This document shows positions 9,801-15,024 of a DNA stretch of 32,000 nt, in pieces (positions within the stretch are counted from its first letter, which is position 1; every line of letters begins with the position of its first letter). The position numbers and the translations under genes are program-made. The notes under the pieces are model-generated. The model saw only the letters and a list, made by a program, of their open reading frames with translations. It ran no database searches and was not told where the DNA came from. Source of the stretch: Candidatus Jordarchaeales archaeon (lineage in GTDB: Archaea; Asgardarchaeota; Jordiarchaeia; Jordiarchaeales; Freyrarchaeaceae); contig JAWCFL010000017.1 of assembly GCA_038858525.1 (NCBI GenBank), forward strand, positions 1 through 32,000. Reading direction: 5' to 3'.

Positions 9801-10439
9801 ATCTTTAAGCATGACGGCATCTGTTGGTCGACCATTTACAAATGGTGAATTAACCGAGAGGGCTATTAGATGAGGTATGAAGGCGCGGATAAGGTTGTAA
9901 ACAGCTATCCGGAGCTTTGTGTCCGGAATCCCTATATGGTGGTGGTCGCCGAAGCTCAAACCCTGCTGGTACTCCATCAGCGGATTTAACCCCGTCGTTA
10001 TGAGTTTAACTCCTGCAGGAAGAGAGTCGTGTGAAAGTTTGAAGAGCGTATGAAGCCACCATGCAAGCTCCTCTAGATTATCGCATGGAGGCGTGGCAAT
10101 TTCCAGAATCCAAGTTATTGTTCCTATATGTGGGTCTCGCCCAAGCAGTTCCACATCTATCTTTTTTCCATCGGGAAGAGTGTATGATATTATAAGCGTT
10201 TCCCCTCTTCTTTCAACGGGTGCAACCCTTACGTTTGAGGCCTTTTTACTTATTCTTTTAACGAGCTCATCCTGAGGGTCTTTAAGTATTGCTTTCAGCC
10301 CATCTGCTACGTCGTGGACTATTTTGCCCATTATACTGATCATTTTTTCTCCATCAATCCAGCGTCCTTTCAAGTTCACGATCTGAACTTCCGACTCTAT
10401 GCCATGGGTGAAGGGTAATTTAAAGATAGAAGAGCTCAA
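6894..10439 (-). CDS. GCS2/YbdK-family carboxylate-amine ligase (about aa 1-470) fused to about six Ig-like/CARDB-like beta-sandwich domains
   Basis: HGIESEVQ, LEIATPP, GLNP, GDHHHIG, ALSVNSPF and DMYPFTKYGTVEARFFDCQ match the glutamate-cysteine ligase type 2 signatures. The C-terminal ~710 aa are repeated beta-strand units (VENKGDEPL...LEPGE). No signal peptide or TM helix seen. The TTG start overlaps the upstream stop (TTGA). Confidence 0.8.
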   Translation of the reverse strand: MSSSIFKLPFTHGIESEVQIVNLKGRWIDGEKMISIMGKIVHDVADGLKAILKDPQDELVKRISKKASNVRVAPVERRGETLIISYTLPDGKKIDVELLGRDPHIGTITWILEIATPPCDNLEELAWWLHTLFKLSHDSLPAGVKLITTGLNPLMEYQQGLSFGDHHHIGIPDTKLRIAVYNLIRAFIPHLIALSVNSPFVNGRPTDAVMLKDGKLQAPGCVRSVRLQLNVRQLGPDDPQHYIPHLKSLDEEFFEKTIGRTPARMCDMYPFTKYGTVEARFFDCQISVIRKIALAALLQAIALKAKKLLETKEEIPEIDSETLIKNRRSAIRWGLTGPFFKPKDLELIVKRHPDFARMYFFDHKSGGKEPVKRLVDAVKNMFLFLREELEELGVLKSEYLNPLLVSVYGDVAGKVTAPMTTADYQLEKFFEFGEDIESLSRELQIIADQTCNNIWSDPLSGTPNLQEIIMVPVSLEVALDTPVVFEGQPVTCRVFVENKGDEPLRDLTLRCIVTSQSGEEVLEEEFALDLLEPGEKRVGEVEFETEAGISQYTLSAELMISSELITTDKLAIPVYRVNCKSDLIAQVDGVIVTGETEIPFIVAVENTTPQDMYLTLRVAVVDRDQKRELDYVTSDVKPWGVYLKPIRARDQVLFVAMSEETAKLDWAKAVLEGQTEGSWIEIEPLVLKPWLYSSWISPRCAIRAQLIDSSGRVISEGWSRDFRVFFQGAMVSVEVGRIPKTTYNIGETLETTVMVDASELLSPTPVSIVVKAKSTTNNIEKKILDMSVKPGVTTSIPVKWTIPSDVLKGGKDEDIMYLSVEVFHDGELINLIETAAKFKVLRGPEVSLKIISMPDAVTPESPLTGKVAIRGLSSALIPCNLIIEKVTQKGTEKAAEVPLSEPMIDSVVDIPPLDIPRDAEKFTVRAFLTRNGEKLAEDELNVNVVRLKEAISVFLNEIPETMTPGALHDAIIQLENKLNTQIAFDFTYTEAANNTIILQETIPVKIEAKDKVLVKIPVKAPLFATDKECKVKIEIKKGEEVGWVNERHIRIEAVRPAIRVAYISTPPLSEYIQVEKELELKISPSVQSFADYTLPVRAVFAIFEKKTKKVVMRKTAELTLTKGKIERISYEPLTWKILKPDKAESYYLGVILFEKVKGELKEIPSKIVQNSLITVTFTPKT

Positions 10440-11173
10440 CTTTGATCACCCGCCTTTTCCAGCGCGTCTTCAACTGCAGAGACAAGTCTCTCAGTTACGT
10501 CGTTAATCATGCTTTCAGGTAAACTCATGTCTAGAAACGAAACTCGTTGCCCTCCTCTTTTTACAAAAACGTGGATGCAATATGCTATAGGCCCCCCTCC
10601 AAAAGTTTCATTATCAAGTATTACACGCACGCCAGAACTTAAAAGCGAATTAACAATGTTATGCCTATCAATAGTTGTGAGTTCATTTATAACTACGGCC
10701 GCGTCCCCCATAGGCATCATCTTAAAGGAACGAAGAAGAATAAGAACGGCGTTTAAGCCGCTTTTATTAAGCAGTATAGACGACATTAACTTTACCAATT
10801 TCTCCCCTGACTCCAAATCCTCTCCAGGCTCTGGAAAGAAGAGATAGTAGAAAGGTTTTCCCTCCACTTTTTTCCTCTCGAAAACCTGTTTCACAGAGCT
10901 TAACAGGACTTCATCTTCCTGCGTTGACAACAACATTAGTGGGATAAACCTCTCATCCTCTCCTGGTATTGAAAGCTTACCCTCCTTCTTCATTCTTTCA
11001 ATATTCCTCATAAATGCCTCGTCGACTATTGAAGATAGAAGAGCATAAAGATGCGCGTAATCTTTTGCCAACTCAACAGCCAACGAGATAAGTTGCTCCG
11101 TTTCCCCTAAAACAGAAAGAAGTGATGTAACAGCCAAGTTGCTCCTTTCAATGACGCTGATCACTTTGTTCAT
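10436..11173 (-). CDS. Hypothetical protein; C-terminal half weakly resembles the N-formylglutamate amidohydrolase (Zn-exopeptidase) fold without obvious metal ligands
   Basis: Long ORF, translationally coupled to the ligase. GVRVILDNETFGGGPIA...VSFLDMSLP resembles the V..N.PY.GG.I...lQiEi pattern (pattern reading only). Confidence 0.6.
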   Translation of the reverse strand: MNKVISVIERSNLAVTSLLSVLGETEQLISLAVELAKDYAHLYALLSSIVDEAFMRNIERMKKEGKLSIPGEDERFIPLMLLSTQEDEVLLSSVKQVFERKKVEGKPFYYLFFPEPGEDLESGEKLVKLMSSILLNKSGLNAVLILLRSFKMMPMGDAAVVINELTTIDRHNIVNSLLSSGVRVILDNETFGGGPIAYCIHVFVKRGGQRVSFLDMSLPESMINDVTERLVSAVEDALEKAGDQS

Positions 11174-11181
11174 GCTTTCGC

Positions 11182-12342
11182 CTACCTTGAAAGCTCTTCT
11201 ATAGACTTTAAAAGGTCGTTTTTATGCCTCCTTAACTCCTGCAACTTCTCGGAGAACTCGCTTATGAAGTCCCTTATCCTCGTTATGGCGTCATCTATTA
11301 TTTTTAGCCTCTCATCGAGCTTCTCAGTTAGATTTCCTGTTTCGCCAAGTTTTAGAAGCGAAGACAGTTTGCCCTCAATAGCGCTTACTCTCCCCTCAAG
11401 GACGGCGAGCCTTCCCTTAACGTCCTCTAGCGCCTCTTTAATTTCTGAGAAGCTCAGTTGCGGGGCTGGCGTAATGACCTCAGTAGCCCCCATTACTTCT
11501 TTCCTTACTTCTTCACTCACTTCGGCTTTCTCAGCTTCCACCTTTCCTTCCAACTTCAGGAGAACAGTCTCCTCCTCATGGCTAGGCCCCGTTAAACCGC
11601 TGATGTAACAGTCATAAACTTCAGCTATGGCCTCCGACATCTCTCTATTGTAAGGCTCGCCTCCTAAGCCTGAAAAAATACATGCCACATCATCATGATA
11701 CTTTAAACACCAAATCCCTCTTCCGCTTTTCTGCTCTAGGAAGAGCAGTAGTGAGGATGAGAAAAACGGGCTTTCGAAAAGATTCTGCACCGTTCTAACT
11801 ATCAAGTTTAACTCTTTCGGTAATGGCCCACCCGCCTCAAACGAGTCACGCGCCCATGCATATTCAAGGTCTTCGCTATCGATAAGCTTTCTAACCCAGT
11901 TCTCTAATCCCTCCACGACTATTCTGGTCCCACTAAACTCATAGGTTCTCTCGCTGAAACCAAGTAGCGAAAGAATGTTAGCCACAATCATCTTCGCCTC
12001 TCTCTCACGGGTCTTGAAAATACAAAGCCACTTCTCTCGCCCATAACCAACAACACACATTCTGCTTCCATTCAACTCCACAACTATAATGGCTAACAGG
12101 TCGCTTCGTAGGAGGGGTGAAAGAAAAACTTCGTTAGAAAACATCCTCAGAAACCTATGCGTCGCATCCATCACCTCGGGACTCAACACGTCGCCCCTAA
12201 AAAACCTGAGGAGTTGTGTTATGCTTCCTCCACTCTTAAGCGCCTCAGCCACTTCATTTATGACCGAAAGATCCGTGAAGAGGTAACCGCTGATCACACC
12301 CACAGTAGAACCATACCACTTGTCAAGCCACTGCCTGAGCAT
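11182..12342 (-). CDS. Hypothetical protein with two internally repeated alpha/beta modules (Roadblock/longin-like) and a C-terminal coiled coil
   Basis: ATG at 12342 follows a GAGGTGA SD. Internal repeat: LSPLLRSDLLAIIVVELNGSRMCVVGYGREKWLCIF vs ESPFFSSSLLLFLEQKSGRGIWCLKYHDDVACIF. Heptads in the last ~90 aa. Confidence 0.65.
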   Translation of the reverse strand: MLRQWLDKWYGSTVGVISGYLFTDLSVINEVAEALKSGGSITQLLRFFRGDVLSPEVMDATHRFLRMFSNEVFLSPLLRSDLLAIIVVELNGSRMCVVGYGREKWLCIFKTREREAKMIVANILSLLGFSERTYEFSGTRIVVEGLENWVRKLIDSEDLEYAWARDSFEAGGPLPKELNLIVRTVQNLFESPFFSSSLLLFLEQKSGRGIWCLKYHDDVACIFSGLGGEPYNREMSEAIAEVYDCYISGLTGPSHEEETVLLKLEGKVEAEKAEVSEEVRKEVMGATEVITPAPQLSFSEIKEALEDVKGRLAVLEGRVSAIEGKLSSLLKLGETGNLTEKLDERLKIIDDAITRIRDFISEFSEKLQELRRHKNDLLKSIEELSR

Positions 12343-12471
12343 TTCACCTCTCTTCAAGGAAACCCCCACCAAGACACTATATATTCAAACACTACTCTAT
12401 CATTAAGCCTAAATAACTCTTCTTCAAACAAAAAAAGTGGGAGCCGTATGCGCAGCGCTTTTCTTATCTGA

Positions 12472-12675: not shown

Positions 12676-12973
12676 TTAGACCACCTTCTTAGAAGGCCTG
12701 TTGCAAAATAAATATTCCACAATTATACTTATTTACTTTTTGGAAGAAAAGGAAATCACAATGAAAAACTGATAATTTACAATTGCTTAAAAAGAAATAT
12801 TCCTAATTCCATCTCTTTTTTGTTTAAGCATTCGAAGACGAAATAAAGTAAAAGCCTAAGCCTCTAGTAACTCCCACAAAGCATCCTAACAGATTCCTAA
12901 ACTAAATTCTCAACAAACTAAAACCCTCTCAAACAAACCATTTTGCGGTTTTTATAGAGCTTCTTTCGTAATG

Positions 12974-12981
12974 TTTAAAAG
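12974..12981 (+). promoter_or_regulatory. Putative TATA box of the tRNA-Cys / pscE / pscS unit
   Basis: TTTAAAAG ends 26 nt before the mature tRNA 5' end (13008), within an AT-rich intergenic region. Confidence 0.55.
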
Positions 12982-13007: not shown

Positions 13008-13169
13008 GCCGGGGTGGCCGAGAGCCTCCAGTCTGATTGAAATGAGGTGCCGGAAACGGTGAGTCCCCCTTCACGGGGCGCGAAGCAGCGGACTGCAGTT
13101 TTATGAGCAGTTATCCGCCATACCGGGGTTCAAAACCTTTAATAGGTGAAACTCCCTGCCCCGGCTCCA
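13008..13169 (+). tRNA. tRNA-Cys(GCA), CCA encoded, interrupted by four introns: 13023-13056 (15/16), 13064-13084 (23/24), 13099-13112 (37/38), 13135-13152 (59/60)
   Basis: Acceptor stem GCCGGGG/CCCCGGC, U73 and CCA. Anticodon stem GCGGA/TCCGC with loop CT-GCA-GA after splicing. T stem CGGGG/CCCTG with loop TTCAAAT after splicing. D arm GCC-GAGCGGTGA-GGC after splicing. Exons of 15+7+14+22+17 nt sum to 75 nt. tRNA identity and the last two introns are firm; the D-arm junctions are less certain. Confidence 0.9.
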
Positions 13170-13200
13170 CTTCTTCTCCAACAGTGTGAGATGGTGCGTT

Positions 13201-13818
13201 ATGCCTCTTTCCCTTTCTTTGGATGCTGCCAGAAAGCTTTCCTCAACTATAGAAGCTCTTTTAACTGCTTGGTCTCTTGTCCGTGCGTCAGCACCTCGCT
13301 TAATCCTAAAGGAAAAAGAAGAAAGAGATTTTGTCGAGAAACTGTTACTGGCGCATCGCGCTCTCTCTGAGCTTTTATCTCTTCTCGGGCTCGACAAGCA
13401 AGAAAACGAGCTTATCAGTGCTCTTTCAGAACTAAATCCTAATGAAACATTACTCCTCGTCGTTCCCCCCTCATTGATGAGGCGCCTTGTGGGAGTCGGT
13501 ATTCCACATGAAAGAGTAATATCAATTGGAGGACCATTAAGCGCTGAAGACGCCAAGGCGTTAAATCCCCACCTTCCCGAGGAAGCTATGAAAGGTGTTG
13601 AAGCACGTTTAAAGAATTTTTGGAGAGAGCTTGAAAGAAAAATTAAAGGAGCACGTACAGTTCTTTTCATCCTGGAGAAAGCTGGCAAAGTTGACGAACT
13701 TATAGCCAAGCGTGCCAGTATGCTTTCTGAAAAGTTTGGAGTCGATGTTAAAGTTGTCTACTTAACTAATCTTGATTCCTGCGTAGAAATTCTACCGCGT
13801 TTTTTCAGGAGGGAGTGA
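13201..13818 (+). CDS. pscE: SepCysE (DUF2100), scaffold linking SepRS and SepCysS
   Basis: IEALLTAWSLVRASAPRLILKEKEERDFVEKLLLAHRALSELL..LG and SIGGPLSAEDAKALNPHLPEEAMKG match my recollection of methanococcal SepCysE. It sits between tRNA-Cys and pscS. ATG 13201 follows a GGTG SD. Confidence 0.75.
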   Translation: MPLSLSLDAARKLSSTIEALLTAWSLVRASAPRLILKEKEERDFVEKLLLAHRALSELLSLLGLDKQENELISALSELNPNETLLLVVPPSLMRRLVGVGIPHERVISIGGPLSAEDAKALNPHLPEEAMKGVEARLKNFWRELERKIKGARTVLFILEKAGKVDELIAKRASMLSEKFGVDVKVVYLTNLDSCVEILPRFFRRE

Positions 13819-13821
13819 GAA

Positions 13822-15024
13822 GTGCCGCTTAGACCTGAACGCCTTTCGAAGTATCGCAACCTTACAAGGAGTACCGAGATTGAAGCGATAAATCTCAACC
13901 CAATTCAGAGTGGGGGACGTGCCGGAAACTACCCTGAAGTCGTCAAATCAGTACTGAACTTCATAGATGGATATAGCACGTGCGACTACTGCATTAAGGG
14001 TAGACTCGAGGAAATCGAGACGCCACCGCTATGTGACTTCCACGCTGACCTAGCAGAATTCATCGAAATGGATGAAGTCAGGCTTCTACCGGGATGCAGG
14101 CAGGCTCAGTTTGCTGCTTTTCACAGCCTAGCAAGCCCAGGAGACTACGTGGTCATAGATTCTCTAGCACATTACTCGACATATCTGGCTGCCGAGAGAG
14201 CTGGACTGAAAATAATTGAGGTGCCCAACAGTGGTTTCCCTTATTTTGAAGTGTCACCTGAGCTTTACGCCGAAAAAATAGAGGAAGCTAAACGCGTCAC
14301 TAAAAAAACACCTGCATTGGTTTTCCTTACTCACGTTGACTACTCCTACGGTAACCTTGCGGATGCCGAGGCCATTGCAAAGGTCTCCCACGAGTATGAC
14401 GTACCATTCATGTTAAACTGCGCGTACACTATTGGTAGAATGCCTGTATCCGGACGAAAATTGAAGGCTGACGTAGTAGTAGCCTCGCTCCATAAGTCTT
14501 TCGCGTCCCCTGCCCCCTCAGGAATACTTGCAGCTAATGGAGAGTACGCTGAGAAAATATTCAGAAAGTCAACGGTGAAGGGAGAGTGGAGCGGCAGAAC
14601 TTTTCCAAACAAGGAGGTAGAACTTTTAGGATGCACGTTGCCCGGCTGCGTCGTTGTTGGAGTGATGGCGGCATTCCCCTACGTTGCTGAAAGAGTAGAG
14701 CGATGGAGTGAAGAGGTCGAGAAAGCCCGTTACTTCTCAAGCCAGCTGACGAAGATCGAAGGCGTCATTCAGCTTGGGCAGACCCCCCATAACCATGACC
14801 TCCTCCACTTTGAAAGCTCCTCGTTCTTCGAGGTGGCTCGCGCTCACCCTAGAAAGGGTTTCTTCCTCTATGACGAACTAAAAGCTAGAGGAGTCGTGGG
14901 CGTCCAGCCAGGCCTATCGAGGTCCTGGAAACTTTCAACATACGGACAAAGCTGGGAAAATGTTAAAAAAGCGGCTCAAGCATTCCTTGAAATAGCTGAA
15001 AAATACAATATCCCCGTCTCTTAA
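13822..15024 (+). CDS. pscS: O-phosphoseryl-tRNA(Cys):Cys-tRNA synthase (SepCysS)
   Basis: INLNPIQSGG, DGYSTCDYC (CxxC), HYSTYLAAE, PLP lysine in SLHKS, VELLGCT, LYDELKARG..G..PG. Confidence 0.95.
   Translation: MPLRPERLSKYRNLTRSTEIEAINLNPIQSGGRAGNYPEVVKSVLNFIDGYSTCDYCIKGRLEEIETPPLCDFHADLAEFIEMDEVRLLPGCRQAQFAAFHSLASPGDYVVIDSLAHYSTYLAAERAGLKIIEVPNSGFPYFEVSPELYAEKIEEAKRVTKKTPALVFLTHVDYSYGNLADAEAIAKVSHEYDVPFMLNCAYTIGRMPVSGRKLKADVVVASLHKSFASPAPSGILAANGEYAEKIFRKSTVKGEWSGRTFPNKEVELLGCTLPGCVVVGVMAAFPYVAERVERWSEEVEKARYFSSQLTKIEGVIQLGQTPHNHDLLHFESSSFFEVARAHPRKGFFLYDELKARGVVGVQPGLSRSWKLSTYGQSWENVKKAAQAFLEIAEKYNIPVS

Follow-up and report, generated by a model that had tools for sequence, protein, structure and literature searches.

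The window analysed here, a stretch of 32,000 nucleotides, comes from a Jordarchaeales (Freyarchaeia) Asgard archaeon and carries at 13008-13169 on the forward strand a tRNA-Cys(GCA) gene that is interrupted at tRNA positions 15/16, 23/24, 37/38 and 59/60 by four introns of the protein-spliced, bulge-helix-bulge (BHB) type. The reading that we favour, at a probability of about 0.78, joins these four introns with separate, relaxed BHBs for the two that lie in the D arm and with a maturation that is probably stepwise, and takes a small GNRA hairpin over one of the D-arm splice sites to be incidental.

Joining 13008-13022, 13057-13063, 13085-13098, 13113-13134 and 13153-13169 yields a 75-nt cloverleaf that ARAGORN calls tRNA-Cys(GCA), with the anticodon GCA and the discriminator U73, and that is similar to the tRNA-Cys of a Sulfolobales genome (L095). 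The unspliced gene receives no tRNA call when the whole window is searched by ARAGORN or against Rfam. A second tRNA-Cys is likewise detected neither by ARAGORN nor by a similarity search of the genome; a home-made pattern scan of the genome for further GCA anticodon arms was too noisy for use. The window has a G+C content of about 44-45%, and G+C-rich pieces alternate with A+T-richer ones at 13008-13169. The parts of the gene, with the predicted splice junctions as their boundaries, are as follows.

13008-13022, forward strand: exon 1, tRNA positions 1-15 (acceptor 5' strand, U8, G9, D-stem GCCG, A14, G15)
13023-13056, forward strand: intron 1, 34 nt, position 15/16, relaxed BHB
13057-13063, forward strand: exon 2, 7 nt, CGGTGAG (C16, G18, G19, U20, G21, A22, G23)
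13064-13084, forward strand: intron 2, 21 nt, position 23/24, BHB
13085-13098, forward strand: exon 3, G24, C25, A26, anticodon stem 5' strand, and C32-G37 including the anticodon GCA
13099-13112, forward strand: intron 3, 14 nt, canonical position 37/38
13113-13134, forward strand: exon 4, A38, anticodon stem 3' strand, variable loop CATAC and T-stem 5' strand, ending with the T-loop TTCAAA (54-59)
13135-13152, forward strand: intron 4, 18 nt, position 59/60, canonical BHB
13153-13169, forward strand: exon 5, T60, T-stem 3' strand, acceptor 3' strand, discriminator U73 and encoded CCA

G15 and G37 sit at predicted splice junctions, as an earlier sequence-only reading of this DNA had stated, each being the last base of its exon, and the genome encodes an archaeosine tRNA-guanine transglycosylase, an enzyme that acts on G15. 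The GCCG of the D-stem 5' strand (13017-13020) recurs inside intron 1 at 13049-13052, exactly where that reading had placed a second copy.

The boundaries of the D-arm introns are set by comparison among eleven orthologs, namely the present gene, those of three further genomes of the same genus (G001, G002 and G003), one from a sister genus (G004) and six from a sister family. The sister-family genes were missed by a mismatch pattern search of the order and were located by synteny, upstream of sepCysE-sepCysS. All four introns are found in G001, G002 and G003, as in the present sequence, and among these four species the exons are 93-100% identical and the introns 59-69% (mean pairwise identity of intron 1, 67%). 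Exon 3 is 100% identical within the genus, and exon 1 is identical across the same four genomes and G004. In G004, which lacks introns 1 and 3, the D arm is contiguous as GCCGAG-TGGCGAG, and in three sister-family genes that have no D-arm intron (G007, G008 and L190) it is contiguous as GTCTAG-CGGCGAGGC; across all eleven orthologs exon 2 is CGGYGAG (TGGCGAG in G004). This contiguity in the intron-less alleles shows that exon 2 comprises C16-G23 and excludes both a boundary at 16/17 and a single long D-arm intron. A 16/17 boundary also has no matching central helix, and relatives have GAG-YGG. The sequence-only reading had proposed two D-arm introns around the 7-nt exon CGGTGAG (13057-13063), and had named one long D-arm intron or a 16/17 boundary as outcomes that would speak against it; the orthologs without introns bear the proposal out.

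The same observations bear on the idea that the boundaries lie elsewhere, that one long intron occupies the D arm, or that the gene is a decaying pseudogene. Standard tRNA finders do miss the gene, and its D-arm BHBs are imperfect, as such an idea would have it. Set against this are the contiguity of exon 2 with its neighbours in the four intron-lacking orthologs, the missing central helix of the 16/17 alternative, the excess of exon over intron conservation, the absence of any other tRNA-Cys in the ARAGORN and similarity searches, and the conserved linkage to sepCysE-sepCysS, and we regard the idea as hardly credible.

Intron content varies among the relatives. All six sister-family genes give a 75-nt tRNA-Cys after removal of introns at 32/33, 46/47 and 59/60, together with one at 15/16 where present; the 59/60 intron is found in all eleven orthologs, and intron 3 (37/38) is missing from G004 and from the sister family. 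The 15/16 intron is patchy, being present in four of the five own-family genomes and three of the six sister-family genomes (G006, L189 and L191, where it measures 32-34 nt), and its 3' strand follows the D-stem sequence, with GGAT accompanying GTCT and CGGA accompanying GCCG. Such a pattern means that either an old intron was lost several times or an intron was gained several times at a single site. When the introns are compared with the genome by BLAST, no paralogous introns appear elsewhere. One metagenome scan adds no further species with intron 1, its sole contig being identical to G003 over the region read, and a scan of the genome collection with the exon 1 15-mer returned mostly chance bacterial matches and class II tRNAs, with only the Sulfolobales tRNA-Cys of L095 of use. 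A strain of the same species (GCA_038884015.1) differs by one G-to-A change at 13035, in the loop of intron 1, and its exons, BHB helices and hairpin are unchanged.

All introns in all species share one geometry, in which two 3-nt bulges enclose a 4-bp helix between four exon bases and four bases near the 3' end of the intron, and the predicted cut falls after the second base of each bulge. Introns 3 and 4 have the strict form, with perfect central helices (CTGC/GCAG and TTCA/TGAA, respectively) and with the anticodon stem and the T stem as their outer helices. Introns 1 and 2 are relaxed motifs because no exon-exon outer helix lies beyond the 3' bulge, and they depart from the strict hBHBh' form. 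In intron 1 the bulges are AG^A and AA^C (^ marks the cut) and the central helix is GCCG/CGGA; its inner helix has one C-T mismatch, which occurs in the present species only. In intron 2 the bulges are AG^T and AA^G, the central helix is GGTG/CGCG and the inner helix is CCCC/GGGG; the geometry is the same in five genomes, and the central helix has all four pairs in G001, G002 and G004. In the present sequence each of the two central helices has three of four pairs, the one mismatch being the outer pair in both, which agrees with the earlier description of both D-arm BHBs as imperfect. Each would draw on the four exon bases that immediately precede the 5' splice site, on the 3' end of its intron and on a helix within the intron.

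In the four-species alignment, 85% of the D-arm BHB cells are paired and three pairs show compensatory double changes, values that only 11-13 of 500 shuffles match. Compensatory changes include G13024-to-A with C13050-to-T in the BHB1 inner helix of G002, and C-G to U-A in the BHB2 inner helix of G001. The two D-arm BHBs share no bases and can form simultaneously.

The fold that competes with them was the central claim of the sequence-only reading, and it is indeed present in the sequence.

13049-13060, forward strand: alternative hairpin GCCG-GAAA-CGGT, spanning 13056/13057 and competing with both D-arm BHBs

The hairpin consists of GCCG (13049-13052), the loop GAAA (13053-13056) and CGGT (13057-13060), with the predicted 3' splice site of intron 1 falling just after the final base of the loop and before the closing pair. 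It uses C13051 and G13052 of the BHB1 central helix and G13058-T13060 of the BHB2 central helix, and through these shared bases it excludes both motifs; mutual exclusion had been proposed for BHB1, and it extends to BHB2 as well.

Predicted energies place the isolated hairpin at -4.6 kcal/mol at 37 °C, -1.3 kcal/mol at 65 °C and +0.5 kcal/mol at 80 °C, so that it would be marginal at the likely growth temperature. These and the following values are nearest-neighbour energies, which ignore protein binding and tertiary structure. When the precursor of the present sequence is folded, the probabilities of the hairpin and of the BHB1 central helix are 0.23 and 0.76 at 37 °C, about 0.3 and 0.56 at 60 °C, and about 0.15 and 0.07 at 80 °C. 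Across the four species the hairpin probability at 37 °C is erratic (0.23, 0.4, 0.77 and 0.00), and over all species and temperatures it varies from 0 to 0.9; in three of the four species the hairpin would account for an appreciable part of the ensemble (probability about 0.2-0.9 at 37 °C). The hairpin fold lies 0.1-1.8 kcal/mol above the ensemble in the present sequence, G001 and G003, whereas the strict BHB folds, apart from BHB1 in G002, lie 3-7 kcal/mol above the ensemble and so do not form the ground state. Since the hairpin is cheap where the strict BHB folds are costly, it could matter kinetically. When intron 2 is removed in silico from the present sequence, the probability of the BHB1 central helix climbs from 0.76 to 0.99 and the hairpin disappears, but G001 and G003 do not repeat this gain for BHB1. 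Folding of the precursor and its partly spliced forms, which had been suggested as a check, therefore upholds competition by the hairpin in three of four species, while the effect of intron 2 removal depends on the species.

These properties invite the explanation, in essence that of the sequence-only reading, that the hairpin is a selected GNRA folding switch. Until another event opened it, it would mask the 3' splice site of intron 1 as well as the central strand of BHB2; splicing would thereby be forced into an order, or the maturation of tRNA-Cys gated, and the 7-nt exon would be kept from being released. Such a switch calls for two mutually exclusive structures, and these exist. The hairpin is also pairable in all four species (all 16 cells, if G-U is allowed), its loop stays GNRA throughout (GAAA or GGAA), its predicted occupancy in three species is appreciable, the present sequence shifts toward BHB1 when intron 2 is removed, and ordered splicing would be useful given an exon of seven nucleotides. 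A switch further calls for both folds to be conserved with independent covariation, and neither the four species nor the sister-family introns show this. The hairpin has no compensatory changes in the four species, compared with three for the D-arm BHB helices, and covariation of the hairpin across orthologs, which the sequence-only reading had proposed to look for, is thus not seen; as only four species carry intron 1, its lack is weak negative evidence.

Bases 13049-13050 close the BHB1 inner helix, 13051-13054 form the BHB1 central-helix strand, 13055-13056 are bulge bases and 13057-13060 are the conserved D-loop residues C16-G18-G19-Y20, so that every base of the hairpin is fixed already by BHB1 or by the conserved D-loop. 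Only two changes occur in the hairpin, both are one-sided, and each improves or compensates a BHB helix. The first, C13050-to-T in G002, accompanies G13024-to-A in the BHB1 inner helix, and the second, T13060-to-C in G003, turns a U-G pair of the BHB2 central helix into C-G. The change that compensates within BHB1 is what destabilises the hairpin of G002, where GUCG-GAAA-CGGU is predicted at +1.0 kcal/mol at 37 °C with a probability of 0.00. The 15/16 introns of the sister family (G006, L189 and L191) end in GGTGGATA(G/A), and the equivalent 12-mer does not fold into such a hairpin. Moreover, among dinucleotide shuffles of 13017-13087, 54% hold a simple hairpin at least as stable (-4.6 kcal/mol) and in 37% such a hairpin crosses a junction position, so the occurrence of the hairpin is no more than expected by chance. 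Its marginal stability at 65-80 °C and the failure of G001 and G003 to reproduce the response to intron 2 removal weigh against a switch as well, and we consider one unlikely. These comparisons suggest that the hairpin has no function as a gate, and they give no support to the proposal of a conserved folding switch.

In the reading that we favour, the hairpin is a real but incidental alternative pairing, whose 5' strand would combine the end of the BHB1 inner helix (GC) with the start of the BHB1 central-helix strand (CG), whose loop would be the remainder of that strand plus the 3' bulge, and whose 3' strand would be C16-G18-G19-Y20 of the D-loop. At most it would slightly lower the fraction of cleavable precursor, with no conserved gate. 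The D-arm BHBs share no bases and neither gains a helix from removal of the other, so their structures impose no order; the hairpin blocks both BHBs and by itself cannot choose which intron goes first. In view of this and of the inconsistent effect of intron 2 removal, the obligatory splicing order that had been suggested from the hairpin is not supported. Stepwise splicing is likely for a different reason, since exon 2 has only seven nucleotides and, once free, would be lost. With all four D-arm cuts made before any ligation, nothing but three pairs to the excised intron 2 would retain the 7-mer. Productive maturation would therefore probably handle one intron per round, with a cut and a ligation followed by another cut and ligation.

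Cleavage would most likely be carried out by a two-subunit splicing endonuclease resembling the crenarchaeal heterotetramer, and joining by RtcB, which the genome encodes. Two EndA paralogs that are 32% identical are found in the genome, at G000:C3:81835-82089 (191 aa) and G000:C43:5978-6235 (198 aa); for the paralog on contig C3, the one that was searched, the best solved-structure matches are the Aeropyrum and Pyrobaculum endonuclease subunits. In the pairwise alignment the C43 paralog has YPR where the C3 paralog has YEH. The C43 protein may be a non-catalytic subunit. A passage in PMC5829648 states that non-canonical introns are cut only by the heterotetrameric and epsilon2 types of endonuclease.

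A different arrangement, and an improbable one in our estimate, is that the two D-arm BHBs stack as a composite substrate whose four sites are cut in one encounter, with no order and with exon 2 retained until ligation through the enzymes or through its few pairs. The motifs share no bases, the 3' bulge of BHB1 (13055-13057) abuts the BHB2 central helix (13058-13061), and this helix might serve BHB1 as its missing outer helix; in G001, a fold with both BHBs enforced costs 4.8 kcal/mol, little more than the 3.6-4.0 kcal/mol for a single one. In the present sequence and G003, by contrast, folding both BHBs together costs 9.3 kcal/mol at 37 °C, and once cut, exon 2 pairs only with the excised intron 2, through three pairs, and would tend to depart along with that intron.

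More doubtful still is a role for the hairpin as a kinetic trap within the genus, holding the two D-arm BHBs closed while the transcript is nascent, with the result that the two introns are never cut together. If true, this would protect the 7-nt exon from loss and provide a simple RNA-encoded timing device for the splicing of a multi-intron tRNA, possibly tied to co-transcription with sepCysE-sepCysS.

The surroundings of the gene are conserved and relate to the function of its product.

12967-12981, forward strand: BRE/TATA-like element CGTAATGTTTAAAAG, a likely archaeal promoter about 27-41 nt upstream of the tRNA 5' end
13186-13818, forward strand: sepCysE-family gene (DUF2100; Pfam PF09873, 89 bits), 16 nt downstream of the tRNA
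13822-15024, forward strand: sepCysS, Sep-tRNA:Cys-tRNA synthase (NCBIfam TIGR02539, 479.7 bits against a cut-off of 365)

The order tRNA-Cys-sepCysE-sepCysS is kept in 11 of 11 Jordarchaeales/Freyarchaeia genomes, and the product of sepCysS is an enzyme that acts on tRNA-Cys. The proteins closest to SepCysS come from Candidatus Freyarchaeota (89% identity) and Jordarchaeales (86%), followed by those of Lokiarchaeota and Helarchaeota (57-59%). A SepRS gene lies elsewhere in the genome, on contig C11. Upstream of the tRNA, the motif CGTAAYNTTTAAAA(G/A) is kept at the same distance in all five family members. The 16-nt gap between tRNA-Cys and sepCysE contains no T-run, and the only conserved TATA-like box is the one upstream of the tRNA, on which grounds tRNA-Cys, sepCysE and sepCysS probably form one transcription unit. 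A TTTAATA in intron 4 was considered as a promoter of sepCysE and dropped because it is not conserved. Two ORFs on the reverse strand upstream of the tRNA, at 10436-11173 (245 aa) and 11182-12372 (396 aa), match no Pfam family at E ≤ 0.001.

Links between tRNA-Cys genes and SepCysS operons are known from Bathyarchaeota and for clade VII SepCysS (Mukai et al., 2017, PMC5424206). The present locus resembles these in that tRNA-Cys stands directly beside genes for tRNA-dependent cysteine synthesis, and differs in that a tRNA with four introns precedes sepCysE-sepCysS by 16 nt, introns not being mentioned for the published loci.

Heavily interrupted tRNA genes have already been published for this lineage. 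In Atabeyarchaeia and Freyarchaeia, introns occur in 92-95% of tRNA genes, often several per gene (Valentin-Alvarado et al., 2024, PMC11291895); the supplementary table of that study has columns for up to four introns per tRNA gene, and if these columns give four starts followed by four ends, the coordinates imply exons of 8-9 nt, for example in Arg-TCT. The present gene is like these in its lineage and in its several non-canonical BHB-type introns, but it belongs to another family within the order, and its set of introns (15/16, 23/24, 37/38 and 59/60) is its own. The published set lists no tRNA-Cys for Freyarchaeia and does not discuss micro-exons, splice order or competing folds. The switch idea is the only potentially new element, and the present comparisons leave it unsupported.

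The tRNA-Cys(GCA) gene of G006, with four introns, lies at C1:1326639-1326821 of a single contig of 3,576,204 bp. Supplementary Data 4 of PMC11291895 enters the same interval, 1326639-1326821, as 'Ser AGA, Infernal 25.2' with three introns. Because the coordinates are exactly those of the G006 tRNA-Cys and the Freyarchaeota table has no tRNA-Cys, the published entry is probably mis-typed and really a tRNA-Cys. In the genome that contains the window (2.09 Mb), five tRNA genes are called at the Rfam tRNA threshold and nine by ARAGORN with anticodon-loop introns allowed; with so few calls, almost all of the tRNA genes must have interruptions at non-canonical sites.

Pre-tRNAs with multiple introns are also a feature of Thermoproteales, which similarly have a heteromeric endonuclease of broad specificity (Sugahara 2007/2008; PMC4033280, PMC4090602). 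That group belongs to a different phylum, and the maximum reported there is three introns (PMC4033280), compared with four here; intron transposition has been described in it, whereas BLAST finds no intron copies elsewhere in the present genome.

A precedent for order through competing folds comes from a further system, with which the present hairpin can be contrasted: here a 4-bp hairpin lacks evidence of conservation, and a box C/D guide within intron 1, considered as a candidate, was rejected because the orthologs show no conserved boxes. In archaeal pre-tRNA-Trp, the BHB and an alternative fold of the intron cannot form together, which forces events into an order, and this alternative fold is a guide RNA that is conserved, bound by protein and of demonstrated function. 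Clouet d'Orval in 2001 and Singh in 2004 are said to have described this box C/D intron.

Taken for its biology, the locus provides a gene model, with good support, for a tRNA overlooked by the standard tools in a lineage for which no cysteine tRNA was listed, and shows that exons of down to seven bases are kept in Asgard tRNA genes. This sharpens the question of how endonuclease and ligase avoid losing such tiny exons; the hairpin idea offers a concrete mutant with which to approach it, although the comparative data do not favour that idea. The direct linkage of the tRNA-Cys gene to sepCysE-sepCysS makes the locus a compact unit for tRNA-dependent cysteine synthesis.
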